Of a stretch of 64,000 nt of DNA, positions 3,111-45,303 are shown one piece after another. The notes under the pieces are model-generated. The model was not told the DNA's origin, searched no databases, and saw only the letters and a program-made list of their open reading frames with translations. Origin of the DNA: Chloroflexota bacterium (lineage in GTDB: Bacteria > Chloroflexota > Dehalococcoidia > GIF9 > UBA5629). Each line of letters opens with the position of its first letter. Position 1 is the stretch's first letter. The stretch covers positions 98,687 to 162,686 of the forward strand of contig VGOP01000003.1 of NCBI GenBank assembly GCA_016875875.1, written 5' to 3'. Position numbers and translations under genes: made by a program.

Positions 3111-4382
3111 TTATTTCTGACCAGAAATGTTCTCAGGTTTATTATCCTTCTTGAGTACGTAATTCCGGACGATTTCGAGAGCTGCCTCGACCATTTCCGG
3201 CTCGATATGCTTGGTCAGGTCATTTGGGGTATGGTACACTATGCCCTGGCTGAACTTGCTGATATCAAAGCTGATGCCAGCCATATTGGTAGCCTCCACG
3301 CCGATTTTGCCGAATGCGGCCGCATCCGTGCTCCCGGCACCAAAAGGCATGCCTGAGATTCTGGCAGGGTAACCTAACGATTCTGCAATGCTGACGCAAT
3401 CCTGCGCCATTTGATGTGACAGTTTTACCGACCCATTTAAGTCATTCTCTAAAAAGGAGAGGTCTTCGACTTTGTAAAGTGTATCAATATTCAAGACATA
3501 GGTCTTGGTGTGGAGCAGTTTTTCACCGTGTTTTTTGCAGAACGCTCGGGCGCCACGGAGGCCAGCTTCTTCAGCATCAAAAGAGGCTACTATCAGCCGG
3601 GTATGACGCAGCGGATTTCTCCCTGCTTGCTTGGCCTGATGAAAAAGCTTTGCCGTCTCATTGGCAATTGCTACGGCAATCATGTTATCGCCAGCACCGG
3701 GGGATACTTGTCCGGTGGTGAAGAATGCCAGTGGAAGCAGGAAAACCCCACCGACTAGCAATATCACGGGTATCCAGGGATGCGTCCAGCCAGGAATGGG
3801 AATGTGAAATATGGTCAAGATGGTTCCTACCAAAGCAACGAGGAAACCAAGCAACAAAAATAGTACCCCTGTATTGATAAGCTTAGCATAGTATTTGGGA
3901 CAACGGGCAATGAGCTGAAACACATATGCCGCATCGTGATGTGCGCTTACGATGACCTGTTGCCTTACCTTCCCTTCTGGTTCAATGGAGCCGAAGACGT
4001 TATATCCGGTGGCTTTAGGGAACAATGGGTCGAGCAGTTTCCAATAGCGTGCGAATTGGGCGTAAAACACAAAGATCCCCAATGTGTACCCGATAAACGC
4101 CGGCACAGGAAGCCGCAAGCATAATAGAATGGTGCAGATAAAATAAAGCACCACCAGCCCGGGGATATACTTCAAGAAACTCTTGGGGTGGACTGTGAAA
4201 TCTTCTATTTTTACTGAACTAGGGTCACAATTCTTGATAAATTCCTCTTTTATCCGATTTGCCGTATTTCGGCAGGCCTCCGTCCCTGCCAGGCGATTGG
4301 GATATCGCTCTACGACTTCGTCAGTGAAATCGAAGGCATGTTGCATATAGCTTTTATTTATCTCTAAGTCAGACTTACCCAT
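3111..4382 (-). CDS. Membrane-embedded M28-family zinc peptidase (aminopeptidase-like) with internal TM segments
   Basis: Peptidase M28-like blocks (SAHHDAAY, ASFDAEEAGLRGARAF, NIDT, GAGSTD, YHTPND) interrupted by hydrophobic helices. Start moved to ATG (MGKSDLE) preceded by GGAGG. The track ORF begins at an upstream alternative start. Confidence 0.6.
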   Translation of the reverse strand: MGKSDLEINKSYMQHAFDFTDEVVERYPNRLAGTEACRNTANRIKEEFIKNCDPSSVKIEDFTVHPKSFLKYIPGLVVLYFICTILLCLRLPVPAFIGYTLGIFVFYAQFARYWKLLDPLFPKATGYNVFGSIEPEGKVRQQVIVSAHHDAAYVFQLIARCPKYYAKLINTGVLFLLLGFLVALVGTILTIFHIPIPGWTHPWIPVILLVGGVFLLPLAFFTTGQVSPGAGDNMIAVAIANETAKLFHQAKQAGRNPLRHTRLIVASFDAEEAGLRGARAFCKKHGEKLLHTKTYVLNIDTLYKVEDLSFLENDLNGSVKLSHQMAQDCVSIAESLGYPARISGMPFGAGSTDAAAFGKIGVEATNMAGISFDISKFSQGIVYHTPNDLTKHIEPEMVEAALEIVRNYVLKKDNKPENISGQK

Positions 4383-4513: not shown

Positions 4514-6178
4514 ATGGCCGATTATCCGTGGTATAAAAGCTACGACCCAGGAGTTCCGTATACTCTGGAACCTTATCCCCAGTATAACGCCATAGACCTG
4601 TTGGACAATGTGGTAAAGTTGCATCCTGACCATCCCATGCTTATTTACCAGCACAGCTGCCTGTCCTGGAAGACTGTTAATGAGTTAAGCGATAAAATGG
4701 CTGCGGCGCTGGTTGCCAGCGGCGTTAAAAAAGGCGACCGTGTGGCGGTGCTATATATCAACATCCCCCAGACTTTTATCACCTACTACGCCATCTGGAA
4801 GGCGGGTGCCATAATAGTGCCCTTGAATCCCCTTTACACCCCGGCCGAATTGGAAAATGCTCTCAATGATGTCGGGGCTGAGGTAGCCTTTGTGTTGAAT
4901 TTCTGGTACCCCATGCTGGATGGGCTGAAACCAAAAACCAAACTGCGATTGCTTATTGTCACCGAACTGGACGAATATACATTGGGAAAAGACATGGATG
5001 CTCCACATGCCATGGAGCTTAAAAGCGGTGACTTGTGGTTCAGTGACCTGATGAAGAAATATGCCAAGGCGGCTCGTCCGAAGGTAAAAGTAGGCCCGAA
5101 AGATCTGGCTTCTATCATGTTCAGTGGAGGAACCACTGGTGTGCCTAAGGGGGTGATGGGCAACCACATCTCCTATACCATGACGGGGATGCAGATAAGG
5201 GCATGGATGGAAGGTGTAGGCCCGGAATGGGAAACCGTGATGCTACTCACACTGCCGTTGTTCCATACCATGGGGGTCTATTTCTGCTTTGCCATGACAC
5301 CGGTAGCACATATGACCATGGTGCTGGTAGCTGACCCGCGGAATGTTGATGTCATCCTGCAAACTGTTCGTGAGGTCAAGCCCACCATGCTCACTGGTAC
5401 TCCGACGATGTTCATCAAGCTACTCGAGCACCCTGACCTCAAGCCAGACGAGCTGAAATGTGTAAAGAATATAGGGACCGGGGCAGCACCGCTGATGGCA
5501 GAAACAAAGAAGAAAATAGATGAACGGATTAGCGGTTTTATCACTGAAGGCTATGCGCTCAGTGAGTCCACGATGGCCATGACCACCACGCCAGCCCGTG
5601 GAGTCTGGAAAGAAGGCTCTGTGGGCTGCCCGCTGCCGGATACCCTTATCCGCATTGTTGATGTGGAGACGGGGACGAAAGAGATGAAGACGGGTGAAGC
5701 CGGTGAGGTGTTAATCAAGGCACCTCAAATCATGGTTGGCTACTGGAACCGTCCCCAGGATACCGCTGAAGCAATTCGCAATGGCTGGCTACATACCGGC
5801 GATGTCGGTTACCTGGACGAGGATGGCTATTTGTTTTTAACTTCTCGTACAAAGGACGTGATAAAGCCGGGCGGTTTCCAGGTCTGGCCTCGGGAAGTTG
5901 AGGAGGTACTCATGACTTATCCAGCAGTATCCGAAGTCTGTGTAGCTGGCATACCTGACCCCCGCCAGATGGAAGCAGTGAAAGCCTGGATTATTCTGAA
6001 GGAAGGGGCGCAGGCTACACCGGAGGAGCTGCAAAACTATTGCCGCGAGAAACTGGCGGCTTATAAAGTGCCCCGGTTTTTTGAGTTCCGCACTGAGCTT
6101 CCCAAGACAATGGTGGGCAAGGTACTGCGCCGCGCTCTACAGGAAGAAGAGAGAGCCAAACAAAAAGAAGTCAAATAG
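4514..6178 (+). CDS. AMP-dependent synthetase/ligase (long-chain or medium-chain acyl-CoA synthetase, FadD-like)
   Basis: AMP-binding signature MFSGGTTGVPKGV, GYALSE, ...GWLHTGDVGYLDEDGYLFLTSRTKDVIK, C-terminal KVPR...LPKTMVGKVLRR. Start set at MADYPWYKSYD with a strong SD. Confidence 0.85.
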   Translation: MADYPWYKSYDPGVPYTLEPYPQYNAIDLLDNVVKLHPDHPMLIYQHSCLSWKTVNELSDKMAAALVASGVKKGDRVAVLYINIPQTFITYYAIWKAGAIIVPLNPLYTPAELENALNDVGAEVAFVLNFWYPMLDGLKPKTKLRLLIVTELDEYTLGKDMDAPHAMELKSGDLWFSDLMKKYAKAARPKVKVGPKDLASIMFSGGTTGVPKGVMGNHISYTMTGMQIRAWMEGVGPEWETVMLLTLPLFHTMGVYFCFAMTPVAHMTMVLVADPRNVDVILQTVREVKPTMLTGTPTMFIKLLEHPDLKPDELKCVKNIGTGAAPLMAETKKKIDERISGFITEGYALSESTMAMTTTPARGVWKEGSVGCPLPDTLIRIVDVETGTKEMKTGEAGEVLIKAPQIMVGYWNRPQDTAEAIRNGWLHTGDVGYLDEDGYLFLTSRTKDVIKPGGFQVWPREVEEVLMTYPAVSEVCVAGIPDPRQMEAVKAWIILKEGAQATPEELQNYCREKLAAYKVPRFFEFRTELPKTMVGKVLRRALQEEERAKQKEVK

Positions 6179-12187: not shown

Positions 12188-13195
12188 CTAGCATATCCGG
12201 GGCAGAAGCTCTCCGCTAAGCATATCAACGATGCGGGATGCCCCGAGCCGCGTCTTCATTATCACCTTGCCTTTGTACTCATCGGTTACCTCACCGATGA
12301 TGGCAGCTTCGGCACCATATTGATTCCGTTTCATCTTGGCCAGAACCATTTGGGCATCGTCTGCGGTGACTATAGCTACCAGCTTGCCTTCATTAGCGAC
12401 ATAAAGCGGGTCGAAGCCGAGAAGCTCGCAGGCAGCTCGTACGCCATCATGTATAGGTATCTTTCCCTCTTCTATCCTGATGCCCACTTTGGACTGTTTG
12501 GCAAATTCGTTGAGTGTGGTGGCTAAGCCGCCTCGAGTTGGGTCACGCAGGGAATGAATTTGCGATGAGTCTTCCGCCATCTGCGACACCAGTTTGTTCA
12601 AGGGGGCGCAGTCGCTTTGAACTGGGACTGAGAACTTCAGCCCTTCGCGCTGGCTCATCACCGCAATGCCGTGGTCGCCGATGGTACCGCTGAGGATAAT
12701 TTTGTCGCCTACTTTGGCATTAGCCCCTGATATATCTATACCCTGTGGGACGATACCTATGCCCGAGGTGTTGATGAACAGTTTATCAGCACCGCCCCGG
12801 TTTACCACCTTGGTATCGCCGGTGACTATCTTCACTCCAGCTTCTTCAGCGGCAGCTTTTATTGAGCTGACTATCTTTTTCAGTTCGCCGAGCGTTAAGC
12901 CTTCTTCTATAATGAACGATAGGCTCAGGTACAGTGGTGTGGCTCCGCTCATGGCTATGTCGTTAATGGTGCCGCAGACAGCTAGCTTTCCAATGTCGCC
13001 GCCGGGGAAGAAGATGGGACTAACTACATAGCTGTCAGTGGTGAAGGCAAGGCGACCGCTGAGGTCGAAAACTGCCGAATCGTCCAGTTTGGCTAATAGC
13101 GGATTGGCTAGAGGCGGCAGGAAATTTTTCTCTATCAGCTCATGACTCAGCCGGCTGCCGCTGCCATGAGCCAGCAGGATTATTTCATCATCCAT
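12188..13195 (-). CDS. hypE: Hydrogenase maturation factor HypE (carbamoyl dehydratase)
   Basis: PurM-like fold, C-terminal PRIC motif ending the protein. Confidence 0.9.
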   Translation of the reverse strand: MDDEIILLAHGSGSRLSHELIEKNFLPPLANPLLAKLDDSAVFDLSGRLAFTTDSYVVSPIFFPGGDIGKLAVCGTINDIAMSGATPLYLSLSFIIEEGLTLGELKKIVSSIKAAAEEAGVKIVTGDTKVVNRGGADKLFINTSGIGIVPQGIDISGANAKVGDKIILSGTIGDHGIAVMSQREGLKFSVPVQSDCAPLNKLVSQMAEDSSQIHSLRDPTRGGLATTLNEFAKQSKVGIRIEEGKIPIHDGVRAACELLGFDPLYVANEGKLVAIVTADDAQMVLAKMKRNQYGAEAAIIGEVTDEYKGKVIMKTRLGASRIVDMLSGELLPRIC

Positions 13196-13222
13196 AATCA
13201 GCTCCGTACTTATAGTAGAGAA

Positions 13223-13281
13223 TGTAGGGCCAGGTCTTTAGACCTGTCCGAGGTGGACAGACCTGAAGGTCTGTCCCTACA
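13223..13281. repeat. 59-nt near-perfect palindrome between hypD and hypE (arms TGTAGGGCCAGGTCTTTAGACCTGTCC / GGACAGACCTGAAGGTCTGTCCCTACA), followed by GTTTTTCTCC
   Basis: Read directly; related half-elements (TGTAGGG..AGG[C/T]CTTTAG[A/G]CCTGTCC) at 42862..42888 and (GTAGGGACAGG) at 43305..43315. Confidence 0.5.
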
Positions 13282-13326
13282 GTTTTTCTCCTTACAAAGG
13301 AGAGGGGGATTAAGGGGGTGAGGTTG

Positions 13327-14412
13327 CTAAACAATTTCATATTGATAATAAGCGGCACAGGCACCTTCTGAAGATACCATGCATGGCCCTACAGGTTGCT
13401 CTGGAAAACAGGCCTTGCGGAATAGCTTGCACTCATTAGGAGTCTTTACACCGCGAAGGATATCGCCGCAGATGCAGCCCTTCGCTTCTCGGACCGGCTC
13501 CAGGGTTACTGAAAAGGCTAGCTCGGCGTCGAAACGTCCGTATTCCTTTCTCAGTTTCAGGCCGCTGGCTGGAACAACGCCTATACCTCTCCAATCGGCG
13601 CCACTGACTTCAAAAACGCTGTCCATTAGCTTTAAGGCTGTTATGTTACCTTCAGGCTTAACGCCACGGCGGTAGGCTATCTCCACCCGCGGCTTGCCGC
13701 TTTCGATTTGCTCCACCAGCATGGCTACGGACTGCAGAATATCCAGCGGCTCGAAGCCTGAGACTACGCAGGCAACGCCGTAGTCGCGGGGGATGAATTC
13801 GTAGTGACGAGAGCCAATTATGGCACTGACATGCCCAGGGCAAACGATGCCGTCCAGCTTGAGCTCACCCAAATCAAGGATAGCTTTCATTATTGGTGGG
13901 CATAGCTTCAGCAGGCAGAGGACGTAAAAGTTTCTGATTCCTTCATTTTCAGCCTGAAAAATGGAGGCGGCGATGGTTGGGCTGGTGGTCTCAAAGCCGA
14001 TGCCGATGAAGATAACCGACCGTGTTGGGTTGTCCCTGGCAATTTGCAGAGCATCTTGGGTGGAGTAGACAATGCGGATATCAGCCTCTTCTGCTCTGAC
14101 TTTCTGCAGGCTGGAATAGCTGCCGGGGACTTTCATCATATCGCCGAAGGTGGTGATAATGACATCGGGCAAGCGGGCCAGGGCAATAGCTTTATCTATA
14201 TCGGCGTTGGCGGTAACACACACCGGGCAGCCCGGGCCAGAGAGCATCTCTACAGTTGGGGGAAGAAGCTGGCGGATACCGTTTCTCATGATGGCTACGG
14301 TGTGCCCGCCGCAGAACTCCATCAGCCTGGCTGGCCTTTTCGACAGTTGCTCTATTCTGGCTACCAGCTTTTTGCCCAGCTCAACATCCCGGTATTCATC
14401 AATAAATTTCAC
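13327..14412 (-). CDS. hypD: Hydrogenase maturation factor HypD
   Basis: MKFIDEYRD..., GPGCPVC and CPVC... Fe-S/CxxC motifs; GTG start sharing a base with the upstream stop (TAGTG). Confidence 0.9.
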   Translation of the reverse strand: MKFIDEYRDVELGKKLVARIEQLSKRPARLMEFCGGHTVAIMRNGIRQLLPPTVEMLSGPGCPVCVTANADIDKAIALARLPDVIITTFGDMMKVPGSYSSLQKVRAEEADIRIVYSTQDALQIARDNPTRSVIFIGIGFETTSPTIAASIFQAENEGIRNFYVLCLLKLCPPIMKAILDLGELKLDGIVCPGHVSAIIGSRHYEFIPRDYGVACVVSGFEPLDILQSVAMLVEQIESGKPRVEIAYRRGVKPEGNITALKLMDSVFEVSGADWRGIGVVPASGLKLRKEYGRFDAELAFSVTLEPVREAKGCICGDILRGVKTPNECKLFRKACFPEQPVGPCMVSSEGACAAYYQYEIV

Positions 14413-15137
14413 TATTCGACTCTTTCTTCCAGGACAGTTTCACCAGCAAGCTTCCCGTTGGTTAGCTGCAACAACGCCTGCTCGGCTTGCTCGAGATTAT
14501 TTGCCAAATCTTCAAGAAGGCTTAGATACTCTGCAGACTTGTTTTTAAATTTATCCAGGTACTTCTGCTTTATCGCCGGGTCTGAGTTACCGATGCTGTC
14601 CCCAATGTTAGTGAGGACGTACTCATTAGTATTCTTGTAGCTCATGGCTAAGTGCTCTGCGCCATTCAGCGTCGACTGAAGCTGGTTGCACAGATCCAGC
14701 CACTGGGGCATGGTGGAATTATCGGACGGCCTTGTTGCTCGTACCTTTTCCGCCATCTCTAAAGACATATCGCAATAAAGCACTAGAGTCCCTGCCGATT
14801 CTGGCCGCGGCAGCATCTCGGGCAGGGGGATCCACTTACAGCCGCTGCTTTCATCAAATGACCCTTTTGTAGTCACATACTCACCCAGCTTACATACGTC
14901 ACTCGGCGGCACTTCCAGGCCAATAACGGAAAACTCATCCCAGGTGAAATCTTTGAGCTCCAAGGCTATACCACGAGTCTCCTCAATATAACCCTTCATC
15001 GCATCATAGGGGTCGACAGGCTTGCGTTCCTCAATTCGGTTGAGACTTCTGGGGACCCACAATAAAGCCAGGCCGGCGAGCAAAAGCACAACTCCAGCAA
15101 CCAAAGCGGCATGCAATACGTACCTATTCCGCTTCAT
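14412..15137 (-). CDS. Hypothetical N-terminally membrane-anchored protein embedded in the hyp operon (no recognisable family)
   Basis: KRNR followed by a hydrophobic helix (LHAALVAGVVLLLAGLALLW), then a ~200-aa soluble domain with scattered Cys and a C-terminal coiled-coil-like segment. Start overlaps the hypC 3' end and the stop overlaps the hypD start. Confidence 0.5.
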   Translation of the reverse strand: MKRNRYVLHAALVAGVVLLLAGLALLWVPRSLNRIEERKPVDPYDAMKGYIEETRGIALELKDFTWDEFSVIGLEVPPSDVCKLGEYVTTKGSFDESSGCKWIPLPEMLPRPESAGTLVLYCDMSLEMAEKVRATRPSDNSTMPQWLDLCNQLQSTLNGAEHLAMSYKNTNEYVLTNIGDSIGNSDPAIKQKYLDKFKNKSAEYLSLLEDLANNLEQAEQALLQLTNGKLAGETVLEERVE

Positions 15138-15354
15138 CGCCAAGCCTCACCATCTCCTCCAATATCTTCAGTGTCTCCTGGGCTTCGGCTTCGTCGATAA
15201 CGTTTATGGCATAGCCGGTGTGTAGCAGGACATAATCGCCGACCTTGGCCTCCGGGGTAAGCATTATGCTGACTCGGCGTTTTACACCGCCGATTTCCAC
15301 CTCAGCTTCATTGCCGTCTATCGAAGTAACCTGTACTGGAACAGCTAAACACAT
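15124..15354 (-). CDS. hypC: Hydrogenase maturation factor HypC
   Basis: N-terminal MCLAVP motif, 76 aa. Confidence 0.85.
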   Translation of the reverse strand: MCLAVPVQVTSIDGNEAEVEIGGVKRRVSIMLTPEAKVGDYVLLHTGYAINVIDEAEAQETLKILEEMVRLGDEAE

Positions 15355-19331: not shown

Positions 19332-21993
19332 CTAATAAGCCTGGCTGTAAATTTGCAGAACTTCATTCGGGTCACTGACAGGGCGCCCATTGAATAGGAC
19401 AGCCGTATCGGCAATAGCATGGAAGGCGCATATGGCCAGGTTCTCTTCCGGAACGCCCACGTCGCGCAGCCTCATCGGATGGCCCACTTTTGTCATCAGT
19501 GCTTCCACTGCGTCCGCTGCTGCCAGGGCGGCATCGCGCTCCGCCATGCCGCTGGTGTTAACGCCCAGGGCCTGTGCTACCTGAGCTAGTTTGTCAGCCG
19601 CGTGATCGACGTTGTACCGCATCACCTTCGGGAGCACTATGCCGCAAGCTGCCCCATGTGGGACATGGTATAGTGTCCCTATAGTATGCGCCATACCATG
19701 TGCCAGGCCGACCTGGGCCATGGTGAATGCCCAACCTGCCATGGTGGCTGCTAACTGCAAATTGAGCCGTGCCTTTTCATTCTCGCCATCGGCTACCACG
19801 AGCGGTAGGTTCTCGTGGATCAGGCGTATAGCCTGCAATGCTTGACCGTCACATATCTTGTTTGCCATGGTGCTTGTCATAGCCTCGATGGCATGTGTCA
19901 GGGCATCCATGGCGGTGGATACGGTTATATCCTTGGGGAAAAGACGTGGTGAAGCGCGGGTCCAGAATAGCCACATTTGGCATGATTCGTGTGTCGACTA
20001 TGAACAGTTTACGTCCCGCGCCTTTGCTTGTGAGTACGGCTATGCTTGTTACTTCACTGCCGGTTCCCGCTGTTGTTGGAATGGCGATATGAGGGGTTTG
20101 AGGCTCAGTGAGTACCAACATGTTCAGATGGTCATTCGCCTTGCCGCCGTTCTTTAAGGTCACACAGACCCCTTTGGCAGTATCGATAACGCTCCCACCA
20201 CCCACGCTTACGATACAGTCCGCCTTCAGTTCGCGGGCCATGGCAGTGGCCGCATCTACTGTTTCCAGATCGGGATCCGACGGGATATTGTCATAGATAC
20301 CCACGCAGAAATCCGCAAGGGCATTCTTCGCCAGCTCAGCCAGCCCGGCCTGCCTTACGCCGGGATCGGTAAGAATCAAAGCCCTGCGGCAGCCAAGATC
20401 CGCAACTGCCTTGTAGATTGAGCTCAGAGCTCCGTGGCCAGCGACTACATTAGTCGGACAGTTGTACGAAAAACCGTCTACCTTTTTATAGTCCGACATA
20501 AGTTGAAAGGAGATATTCGTCTTATGGTCGGCCAGGGCGGACACATGTATTCTCTTGATCTGGGTATATTCATGTAATCCCGCGAGCCCCAGCTCACGTC
20601 CTACGCCGGACTGCTTATACCCACCAAAGGGGCAGAAATCGGCAAAGACGTGGTAATTGTTTATCCACATTGTTCCGGTACGTACCCCGCGGGCTACACG
20701 CTCGGCCCTGGCGGTGTTAGAAGAAAATACCCCTCCTCCCAGGCCATAAATGGAGTCATTGGCAATTGCCACTGCTTCTTCATCGCTGTCGTATTTTATA
20801 ACACAGACAACTGGGCCAAAGATCTCTTCCTGCGCGATACGCATTTTGTTGTTCACGTTGGCGAAAATGGTGGGAGCATAGTAGAATCCGCCATTGATTC
20901 CTTTAACCTCGACGCGTTTTCCACCTGTGATCAGTTCCGCTCCCTCTTCATTACCCATTTTGACGTAACGTTCGACTGTGGCCAATTGCGTCTTGCTGAC
21001 AAGAGGCCCCATGTGCGAGTTAGGGTCCATCTGGTATCCGATGCGGATAGATTCAGCTCGCTTTTTCATCTTGTCGAGGAACTCATCATATATCTTTGAT
21101 GAGACTAGTACGCGTGTACCTGATTCGCATATCTGTCCCTGGTGGAAGAAGGTGCCGAAAACGGCGCCCTCTACGGCCAGGTCCATATCAGCATCGTCAA
21201 GTATGATATTGGCCGATTTACCGCCGAGCTCGAGTGTCACTTTTTTCACCGTGTCGGATGCCAGTCTCATGATTTCACGTCCGACTTCCGTGCTGCCGGT
21301 AAAGGCTATCTTGCCCACATCGGGGTGGGTACAGAGAATTTTGCCCAGCTCTCCCCCTGGTCCGGTTATGACATTTACCACCCCGTTGGGAATGCCGGCC
21401 GCTTTGGCGGCTTCAGCAATGATAAGTGCGCTCAATGGGGTTGCCGAAGCCGGTTTCAAAACGATGGTATTTCCCATTACGAGGGCAGGGGCGATTTTCC
21501 AGAAAGCCATGGTCATGGGGAAGTTCCAGGGAATGATTCCCACGCATACGCCAATTGGCTCCCTGCGGATAAATTCACGGCCCGGTGCAAATACATTCCC
21601 TGAGATCTGGATCTCTTCCTCCCAGGGAAATTTTGTGGCCGCTACTAGACTCAGATTGCGCAATAACCCGATGCCGAGCAAGGGCCCGAACTTGGCGAGT
21701 CCCATGATCTGGTCTGAATCCATGCATTCAGTTGCAGCCAGACGTAGCCCCTGCTGTGCTACCTGGTCGGCAAAATCCTGAATTTTTGCCATACGGGCCA
21801 CCGGGGACAACCCGCTCCAGCCCCCGCTGTCGAAAGCCTTACGTGAGGCGGCTATAGCCGCCTCTGCATCAGCCTTTCCCGCTTGTGCTACTGTTGCTAT
21901 AGGAGCTTCAGTGCCAGGGTCGATCGATTCGAAGGTCTTTCCGTCTGCGGCGTCGACAAATTCTCCATCAATAAACAGTTTATATTGCTCCAT
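19332..21993 (-). pseudogene. AdhE-like bifunctional aldehyde dehydrogenase / iron-containing alcohol dehydrogenase, interrupted by a frameshift
   Basis: N-terminal ~490 aa is NAD-ALDH superfamily. The Fe-ADH domain follows (GGGSVIDTAKG...), but the frame breaks at ~19930-19945 within a T4/C4 run (coding strand cgtcttttccccaagg). The downstream frame continues the ADH (DITVSTAMDALTHAIEA...HVPHGAACGIVLP...). Track ORFs 19849..21993 and 19332..19976. Confidence 0.6.
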
Positions 21994-42828: not shown

Positions 42829-42925
42829 TTGAGCCAGGCTTAGCTTTATATCCCCAATAAGTGTAGGGATAGGCCTTTAGGCCTGTCCAAAGTAATTGTG
42901 AATTCTGCAACAAAAGGAGGTAAAA

Positions 42926-43255: not shown

Positions 43256-43588
43256 ACTGTACCGTTAGCTTTGTATCTAGCCCTTAGCGAGTCATATATG
43301 TGAAGTAGGGACAGGTTTTTAAAGGTTCCGTTTGCTCTTGATTGATTTCACATTCCAGTCTTTACAGAAATAGCATTTGGTGCCTTTATAAGTACCAAAC
43401 TTGGTAGTATTTATAGACTTGCAATTACTGGCAGGTTGATTATGAAGGGAAAATATAGTTCTCTCAGTTGGTGGGGATGTAACCGTCTTGTTGTTTGATG
43501 TGTCACTAGTGTACTAGACGAGTACAAGGATTTGACTTCTTAGTTGAAAAACACTATTCTTTATCCTTCGGTCTAAGTAGAAATTGCT

Positions 43589-43657
43589 TGTCACACTGAG
43601 CAATAGCTAAGGGTCTCCAGATTCTTCGCTCTGCTCAGAATGACACTGAGGATCTGG
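43589..43657. repeat. Intergenic inverted-repeat element of the CACTGTCATTCTGAGCGAAG family (locus 1), upstream of rplY
   Basis: TGTCACACTGAGC ...(~30 nt)... GCTCAGAATGACACTGAG, nested in CCAGAT...ATCTGG. Related copies at 53330..53425 and 54421..54456. Confidence 0.4.
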
Positions 43658-43689
43658 ACAATCTCGGCAGACCAAAGAGAGGTAACAAT

Positions 43690-44364
43690 ATGAAACGACA
43701 TGAACTCGAAGTTTCCAAAAGAGACATAACCGGCAAGAAAGTAAGATTTCTACGCCGCCAAGGTATCACTCCAGGTAATATCTATGGGCACGGAATTGAC
43801 TCCACCGCGGTAAAGATGGATGCCAAAAGTTTGAAGCATTTGCTGGCCCATGTAGGCGGAACCGACCTTATCTCCCTAAAAATCGACAATTCAAAGACCC
43901 CAGTACTAGTCCTAGTTCGCGATGTGCAAAGAAACCCGCTCACTGATGAGCTTCTCCACGTGGACTTCTATCAGGTCAAGATGACCGAAAAGATAAAGGC
44001 AGACGTTGCTCTGGTATTCGTCGGAGAGGCACCGGTGCTTGATAAAATCAAGAAAGCCTCCGTCCTTCCTCTAATTGATTCCCTGCACATTGAAGCTTTG
44101 CCCGATGACTTACCTCACAGCCTCGAGGTAGACCTGTCAAGCCTTGAAGAGCTTGACAGTACAATCCACGTCAAAGACATCCATCTCGGCGATGGCATAA
44201 CCCTCCTCAGCGACCCAGAACAGATGGTGGTCAAAGTAGCCGAGGCACGCAAAGAAGAGGTTGAGGTGGTGCCTGAGGTGGTTGAGGCGGAGCTTAAGGA
44301 AGGGGTTGAGGAAGTGGCAGAAGAGGCTGAAGCCGAGGCTGAACCTGGTGCCGAGGAAGAGTAG
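43690..44364 (+). CDS. rplY: 50S ribosomal protein L25 / general stress protein Ctc, with acidic C-terminal extension
   Basis: MKRHELEVSKRDITGKKVRFLRRQGITPGNIYGHG... L25 N-terminus; Glu/Ala-rich tail. Confidence 0.8.
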   Translation: MKRHELEVSKRDITGKKVRFLRRQGITPGNIYGHGIDSTAVKMDAKSLKHLLAHVGGTDLISLKIDNSKTPVLVLVRDVQRNPLTDELLHVDFYQVKMTEKIKADVALVFVGEAPVLDKIKKASVLPLIDSLHIEALPDDLPHSLEVDLSSLEELDSTIHVKDIHLGDGITLLSDPEQMVVKVAEARKEEVEVVPEVVEAELKEGVEEVAEEAEAEAEPGAEEE

Positions 44365-45170: not shown

Positions 45171-45228
45171 GATACCTCCTAATACTGTTGACTTTTGTTG
45201 CTCATTACAATTTTGCCATATGTAGCGC

Positions 45229-45270
45229 GACCCTTTGGGGTCGCTTTTTGAAGCGAGGCTAAAGCCTCGC
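45229..45270 (+). terminator. Tandem GC-rich hairpins (GCGACCC-TTTG-GGGTCGC followed by TTTTTG; GCGAGGC-TAAA-GCCTCGC)
   Basis: Read directly. Looks like an intrinsic terminator on the + strand although no + strand gene ends nearby. Lies between two minus-strand genes. Confidence 0.3.
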
Positions 45271-45303
45271 AACTACACAACCGAAATCCAACAGTGCCTA
45301 TCG

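Follow-up and report, generated by a model that had tools for sequence, protein, structure and literature searches.

The 59-nt element at positions 13223-13281, between hypD and hypE in the 64-kb stretch of DNA that was analysed (hereafter the window), is very probably a GTAG-type REPIN, i.e. a small mobile repeat spread by a RAYT, and neither a regulator evolved for the hyp operon nor the border of a gene cassette. Judging from sequence comparison, the RAYT (TnpA-REP) that is cognate to this GGACAG-type REP most likely copies the family around genomes. The REP family is probably a new one of a known kind; it was compared with the 24 GTAG families of Di Nocera et al. 2013 (PMC3733652) by their description. 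Less expected are how many phyla a single REP sequence reaches and how the insertion is built.

Structure of the element

The element is made up of TGTAGGGCCAGGTCTTTAGACCTGTCC, the pentanucleotide GAGGT and GGACAGACCTGAAGGTCTGTCCCTACA, and is directly followed by GTTTTTCT on the + strand. The sequence-only reading had described it as a near-perfect palindrome with 27-nt arms around GAGGT. The sequence is as given there, but 'near-perfect' overstates the match, since a direct reading finds the two arms identical at 21 of the 27 positions. Six positions differ, four of them by paired changes (GT/AC versus AC/GT), and the arms agree at no more than 21 positions because each of them folds as a separate hairpin of 9-10 bp. 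Each arm is a 26-nt unit that begins with an unpaired GTAG head and continues as a 9-10-bp hairpin of the form GGACAGxyC(T)-loop-(A)Gy'x'CTGTCC.

Unit A (GTAGGGCCAGGTCTTTAGACCTGTCC, 13224..13249, + strand) has its GTAG head at 13224-13227 and its hairpin, with one C/T mismatch, at 13228-13249 (-4.9 kcal/mol as DNA). Unit B (GTAGGGACAGACCTTCAGGTCTGTCC, 13255..13280, - strand) has a perfect 9-bp stem and a 4-nt loop (-9.2 kcal/mol as a DNA hairpin, z = -4.6) and is the commonest variant in the family; an identical unit flanks the RAYT genes of loci L133 and L138. At 26 nt, with a 9-bp stem and a 4-nt loop, the unit has the size and stem-loop of a GTAG-type REP. Based on the folds and the covariance-model matches, 13223..13281 as a whole (no strand assigned) is a heads-out (HH) heterodimer of two such units, and this inverted REP pair with a short spacer of 5 nt (GAGGT, 13250-13254) has the make-up of a REPIN.

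On the transcribed strand, the RNA of 13223-13281 folds at -37.9 kcal/mol (z = -4.6; none of 200 shuffles equalled it), and the DNA fold has a z of -4.3. The folded structure far exceeds chance. The RNA takes a Y shape, in which two hairpins are closed by GUAGGG/CCCUAC. Copies in other genomes served to build a covariance model, which was run unfiltered over the whole 64-kb window and finds no more than four units, all intergenic. Three are intact, namely unit B (46.3 bits, E = 1e-12), a unit at 42863..42888 (43.5 bits, E = 9e-12) and unit A (40.5 bits, E = 8e-11), and all three keep the GTAG tetranucleotide; the fourth is decayed. An Rfam scan of 13000-13500 (E <= 10) returned only sub-threshold microRNA-like hairpin matches, so the element belongs to no known RNA family. 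A full-text literature search for the 10-mer GTAGGGACAG gave unrelated primer matches only.

Insertion at the hypD/hypE junction

The placement of the element between hypD and hypE in the sequence-only reading is borne out. Both genes lie on the minus strand: hypD at 13327-14412 (Pfam HypD, E = 7e-152) and hypE at 12188-13195 (AIRS and AIRS_C domains; HypE accession MBM4446360.1), separated by a gap of 131 nt that holds the element. In four close relatives (L214, L216, L218 and L231), whose HypE is 90-92% identical, hypD and hypE overlap by 1-8 nt. A block of about 114 nt at 13218..13331 (- strand) is absent from L214, L216 and L218 by alignment, and also from L231. The overlap of the two genes in these relatives makes the window's block a lineage-specific insertion of about 114 nt. 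Filled and empty sites, the mark of a mobile REPIN, are thus both present, and the suggestion of a 'REP-like insertion' has turned out well, with a GTAG REP doublet in the window and an empty junction in four relatives.

The inserted block consists of 50 nt with a new stop codon for hypD (TAG), followed by the REPIN and a further 5 nt. The 50-nt segment on the hypD side has no meaningful match among the roughly 230 loci compared. A duplication of about 19 nt brackets the insert, and its two copies have diverged. The left copy of the duplicated hypD 3' end, TATTATCAATATGAAATTG (13332..13350, - strand), matches the ancestral TATTATCAATAYGGAACTG at 16-17 of 19 positions. The right copy, TACTATAAGTACGGAGCTG (13199..13217, - strand), bears the GGAG ribosome-binding site of hypE, and its region matches the ancestral sequence at 18 of 22 positions, a score reached by 0.05% of shuffles. 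Both this duplication and the length of the insert, roughly double that of the REPIN, count against the reading as a REPIN; Y1/HUH transposition is not known to yield a duplication of about 19 nt.

A further feature of the operon is a 243-aa ORF at 14412-15143 (- strand), which lies between hypC and hypD, overlaps both and has no Pfam or NCBIfam match. It is missing in L214 and L218, where hypC and hypD overlap directly, and is a putative second lineage-specific insertion in the hyp operon.

The REP family in other genomes

The pattern GTAGGGNNAGNNCTNNAGNNCTGTCC was scanned on both strands in one genome per species (596 Gb). It was found in at least 120 stretches, against about 17 expected by chance on our own estimate, so the family does exist beyond the window. 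Among the matches listed, the unit occurs in MAGs that bear the labels Chloroflexota/Dehalococcoidia, Brocadiales and other Planctomycetota, Nitrospirae, Zixibacteria, Gemmatimonadota, Acidobacteria, Ignavibacteria and Schekmanbacteria. Matches on several contigs are found in many of these MAGs, with up to 9 stretches per MAG. Overall, carriers of the unit are assigned to at least seven phyla, with GC contents of 42-69%.

Among the matches listed (169 copies), 157 have AC at positions 7-8, and 153 have complementary central dinucleotides, compared to about 6% by chance. The central pairs in these copies are AC/GT (78), GT/AC (34), GG/CC (19), AG/CT (17) and GC/GC (5). Across 43 distinct sequences, pairing holds in 96.9% of cells, with 37 double-sided changes, a result that none of 500 shuffles reaches. 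The hairpin is a selected feature of the REP unit. The base 5' of GTAG is a pyrimidine in 89% of the 169 copies listed, and these copies display no preference for a CT dinucleotide beside the unit, the commonest dinucleotide there being AT.

The arrangement of units was counted in the 120 loci listed (800 kb), which had been selected for having a unit, with three substitutions allowed. The 220 units found comprise 53 heads-out dimers, 6 heads-in dimers, 13 head-to-tail pairs and 87 singletons. Forty-six of the 53 heads-out dimers in these loci are heterodimers, with spacers mostly of 1-17 nt (median about 9 nt). Since heads-out heterodimers with short spacers prevail among the pairs, the window element represents the commonest paired form. 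In the same loci, chosen as they were for carrying a unit, 46% of the 220 units lie in long stop-free frames versus 88% of background bases.

Some further observations concern repeats of this kind. Head-to-tail REP arrays with a period of 36-37 nt and conserved linkers of 10-11 nt occur in a Planctomycetia MAG (L024, 2027-2163; L100, 674-807); CRISPR was rejected for both arrays on account of this period and of the short, conserved linkers. The REP is also present on six viral-classified IMG/VR contigs (L225-L230), where less than one would be expected by chance on our own estimate. Within the window, a perfect 20-nt palindrome, GAGGCGGCTATAGCCGCCTC (21845-21864), has a CT..AG apex and lacks the GTAG head.

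The RAYT partner protein

In a Dehalococcoidia MAG from Lake Baikal (L118, one of the 120 loci listed in the REP scan), an ORF with a Y1_Tnp domain lies between trpF and the next gene and has inverted REP copies on both sides. The nearest database relatives of its protein, P0001, P0002 and P0019 (loci L132, L133 and L131), have the same inverted REP flanks, and GGACAG-type REPs also flank RAYT genes in L138, L140, L144, L145, L146 and L182. In total, ten contigs, all other than that of the window, carry a RAYT between inverted copies of the window-type REP. A metagenome scan with an alignment of the RAYT family added 80 further loci. About 60 of these 80 have inverted GTAG-headed hairpins on one or both sides, with a constant CT-TY-AG apex and lineage-specific stems; the GTAG heads were here recovered independently of the search pattern.

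The NCBIfam model NF047646, 'REP-associated tyrosine transposase' (cut-off 80), gives 91.6-112 bits for the L118 protein, P0003 and P0007, versus 30-42 bits for these proteins with the IS200 model NF033573 (cut-off 55). The HUH and tyrosine motifs are kept in alignment A1 as H59 and H61 (HLH) and Y117 (YIWNNP). Among solved structures, that of E. coli TnpA-REP (4ER8, E = 7e-10) comes nearest. By crude clustering, the RAYTs with a GGACAG-type REP fall into three or four subgroups that are about 50% identical to one another, and not into a single clean clade. Mean RAYT identity is 0.54 within a REP type versus 0.44 between types; the REP type co-varies with the RAYT lineage in a real, loose way. 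No RAYT was found in the 64-kb window, either with an HMM from alignment A1 or with phmmer and an approximate RAYT query, a search that counts as a lead only.

RAYT genes sit within biosynthetic operons at several loci: trpF-RAYT-trpB in two MAGs (L118, about 4940-5370; L131, 10001-10330), purB-RAYT-purC (L127, 4001-4465) and ilvN-RAYT-ilvC-RAYT-leuA (L129, 4001-4378 and 5993-6376). The L118 gene is without a usable start codon, and that of L131, which comes from a low-coverage long-read assembly, seems to carry a frameshift. Over-called RAYT ORFs contain 'DRPSGLS' and 'DRPEGLS' peptides that are translated REP, meaning that gene callers turn the REP into spurious 'DRPSGLS' N-terminal extensions. 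The REP family also accounts for the RAYT genes found here sitting on short contigs.

The CMD gene and a second REPIN

The intact unit at 42863..42888 (GTAGGGATAGGCCTTTAGGCCTGTCC, + strand; -7.1 kcal/mol as a DNA hairpin) is a single one, between an alpha/beta-hydrolase gene and the 109-aa CMD/AhpD-like gene. The decayed unit, GTAGGGACAGGTTTTTAAAGGTTCC (43305..43329, + strand), lies on the other side of the CMD gene in the same orientation. It has lost its 3' stem and with it the hairpin, shows no fold, and scores 10 bits (E = 0.5) with the covariance model. As its first 19 nt, GTAGGGACAGGTTTTTAAA, equal the 'GGTTT' subtype, which is a dimer partner in L006 and L105, it is identified as a decayed copy. 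The sites near the CMD gene had been attributed to the same element family as the palindrome, and this is confirmed for both, as a full unit and as a decayed one with a GGTTT-subtype prefix.

The same reading had also taken the CMD gene for a small cassette bounded by these elements, and here the relatives disagree. L223 and L224 have the order hydrolase-CMD-glpK, with the CMD gene at the same position as in the window, whereas L219-L222 have hydrolase-glpK. The window-type REP family was not found near the CMD site in any of L219-L224. Since relatives hold the gene at the same place without these REPs, the cassette idea fails. The check that had been proposed, for relatives lacking the gene and retaining a single element, went against it as well: L219-L222 have neither a CMD remnant nor a REP scar. 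An integron cassette is a promoterless ORF bounded by RYYYAAC and GTTRRRY cores, with an integrase or a cassette array nearby; no such cores are found in the window units and no integrase is visible in the sequence. At 42863 and 43305 stand two independent copies of the REP family, both in intergenic spacers, and the gene arrangement in the relatives indicates that REPs colonised the spacers around a resident CMD gene and do not form cassette borders.

The decayed unit coincides with a divergence in gene order from the relatives. Right after the CMD gene, at 43256-43690, the order breaks and the window continues with the gene for ribosomal protein L25, versus glpK and glpD in relatives. This change of order suggests that a rearrangement may have taken place at the site of the decayed REP.

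A second REPIN, of a different GTAG family, is located at 45222..45276 (no strand assigned), where GTAGCGCGACCCTTTGGGGTCGC and the inverted GTAGTTGCGAGGCTTTAGCCTCGC point their heads outward around an 8-nt spacer (-17.4 kcal/mol and z = -5.2 when folded as DNA). The genes on either side of it are two minus-strand hydrolase/phosphoesterase genes. This second family also flanks RAYT genes in L200, L207 and L209. Its presence indicates that no fewer than two REP families, and probably two RAYTs, exist in the genome. In L223, a heads-out dimer of the second family (3845-3894) occupies the same hydrolase-CMD spacer that holds the single GGACAG-type REP in the window. Different REP families thus appear to have occupied one intergenic spot.

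Comparison with known systems

Among the closest counterparts are the Group 3 REPtrons of Stenotrophomonas maltophilia and Marinomonas sp. MWYL1 (PMC8266576), which share the GTAG head, a perfect short palindrome with a small loop and a RAYT gene bordered by inverted REPs, and whose RAYTs pass the same NCBIfam equivalog model. In contrast to these, the stem here is GGACAGxyCT..., and the family resides in uncultured Chloroflexota, Planctomycetota, Nitrospirota and others. The E. coli REP/BIME system with TnpA-REP (RayT/YafM; 4ER8; PMC3479197) likewise combines GTAG-headed REPs and inverted pairs with one Y1/HUH enzyme. However, its REPs have a bulged stem and larger loops, the linkers of its BIME pairs are longer and defined, compared to spacers of mostly 1-17 nt here, and its protein has low similarity to the present RAYTs (E = 7e-10).

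In Pseudomonas fluorescens (PMC3116915, PMC3337134), the mobile unit is also an inverted-REP doublet, the RAYT is flanked by the same REPs and singletons resemble decayed doublets; the spacers of the present family are much shorter, and its doublets are mostly heterodimers folding as a Y and not as one long hairpin. The element also matches the REPIN-RAYT systems of PMC3116915 and PMC5581495. According to Di Nocera et al. 2013 (PMC3733652), GTAG REPs have a GTAG tag, a 6-13-bp stem, TY loops and heads-out (HH) dimers with frequent heterodimers, as found here, and occur also in Chloroflexi and Planctomycetes. The families described there include GTAG-23 of Thermomicrobium roseum (Chloroflexi), whose elements are clustered in blocks, whereas those of the present family are dispersed. 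IS200/IS605 elements share the Y1/HUH chemistry on single-stranded hairpins and a tetranucleotide guide 5' of the hairpin; unlike the present units, their two ends do not form an inverted repeat, and the REPs here far outnumber the genes.

Alternative explanations

The element had also been proposed as an attenuator or processing site, and such a structure could have evolved to set the ratio of hypFCD to hypE. A very stable structure between two cistrons would fit this, as would the effects on mRNA decay and termination that are reported for E. coli REPs. An intrinsic terminator, though, has a G+C-rich stem and, directly after it on the transcribed strand, a U-tract. The T-run noticed after the palindrome is indeed there on the + strand, but the hyp genes are on the minus strand. 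On the hyp mRNA it is an A-run upstream of the folded structure, and what comes after the structure is AUUCUCUACUAUAAG; the terminator reading fails because no T-run lies 3' of the structure. In line with this, a search of both strands found no terminator-like site at 13223-13281, and an intrinsic terminator or attenuator was rejected. Moreover, the hypD-hypE spacer itself is absent in the four close relatives, and the identical unit recurs in at least 120 unrelated contexts, which makes a hyp-specific origin very unlikely. A secondary effect of the element on the mRNA is possible, yet it would not be the element's origin. Little probability is likewise given to the element being a site where a host protein binds (as an operator, nucleoid or gyrase site) and that is held by selection and not by mobility. 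The sequence is near-invariant in MAGs of several phyla over a wide GC range, and E. coli REP clusters are reported to bind host proteins. On the other hand, presence and absence vary among close relatives, a decayed copy exists, the units are tightly associated with RAYT genes, and the base-pair covariation points to a constrained hairpin and not to a duplex half-site.

Two further readings also invoke mobility, of other kinds. That the REP copies border a mobile cassette with the CMD gene, as an integron attC-like or composite element, is extremely improbable. The related units do stand in direct orientation on both sides of the gene, and the gene is missing from some relatives, but the relatives that carry it are without this REP family (L223 has the other-family dimer upstream of it), those without it retain no trace of gene or REP, the downstream copy has no hairpin, and integrase and GTTRRRY core sites are absent from the sequence. 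The element is also unlikely to be a miniature IS200/IS605 derivative, moved by an ordinary IS200-type TnpA and not by a domesticated RAYT, even though the flanked proteins have the Pfam Y1_Tnp domain that is common to IS200 and two such genes lie close together at some loci (L129). The RAYT equivalog model, and not the IS200 model, recognises the proteins above its cut-off, with TnpA-REP as the closest solved structure. The hairpins flanking them are inverted GTAG-headed copies, while the end hairpins of IS200/IS605 are distinct and point in the same direction (PMC8266576). Among the called genes beside RAYT genes in the annotated loci there is no tnpB, and the genes sit at fixed positions in trp, pur and ilv operons. 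Inverted units and NF033573 scores below the cut-off do not fit an IS200/IS605-derived miniature element.

Proposed origin and significance

For the GTAG-type REPIN, the following course is proposed. A block containing the REPIN would have entered the hypD/hypE junction in this lineage, where the genes of the relatives overlap, and would have broken the ancestral overlap. The duplicated old hypD 3' end, with the hypE ribosome-binding site, would keep hypE translatable by preserving its translation start. The REPIN would then be transcribed inside the hyp mRNA, as a stable Y-shaped structure. As it lacks a terminator U-tract, only the generic effects of a strong structure on the mRNA are expected, and these might abolish translational coupling, hold up 3' exonucleases or create a processing site. 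Published RAYTs are HUH/Y1 enzymes whose genes are bordered by inverted REPs (PMC8266576); they bind the folded single-stranded REP with GTAG as the guide, cut at CT or CA through a 5'-phosphotyrosine intermediate and rejoin the strands after cutting at a nearby dinucleotide (PMC8266576, PMC3479197). This chemistry presumably holds for the window REP family, with the invariant CT-TY-AG apex as the likely recognition element.

The carriers are assigned to Chloroflexota, Planctomycetota/Brocadiales, Nitrospirota, Zixibacteria, Gemmatimonadota, Acidobacteriota and Ignavibacteria, and are uncultured organisms from anoxic freshwater, groundwater and sediment. A bolder proposal, which we put forward tentatively and consider rather doubtful, is that a near-invariant 26-nt REP and a RAYT clade common to at least seven phyla have spread horizontally between them. 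If true, this would contradict the present view that REPIN populations are inherited strictly vertically and are specific to their lineage, and the CT-TY-AG apex, conserved across the RAYT clade, would be the recognition determinant of the enzyme.

For the hyp operon and the CMD gene, a false lead is removed, as the repeats are very probably neither a hyp-specific attenuator nor the borders of a gene cassette. A REP/RAYT family is documented in uncultured lineages, where such systems are little described. The clean pair of filled and empty sites at a junction that normally overlaps would offer a natural test of the effect of a REPIN on a polycistronic mRNA, and the range of phyla, the CT-TY-AG apex and the preference for heterodimers provide handles on how RAYTs recognise their targets and on movement between phyla.
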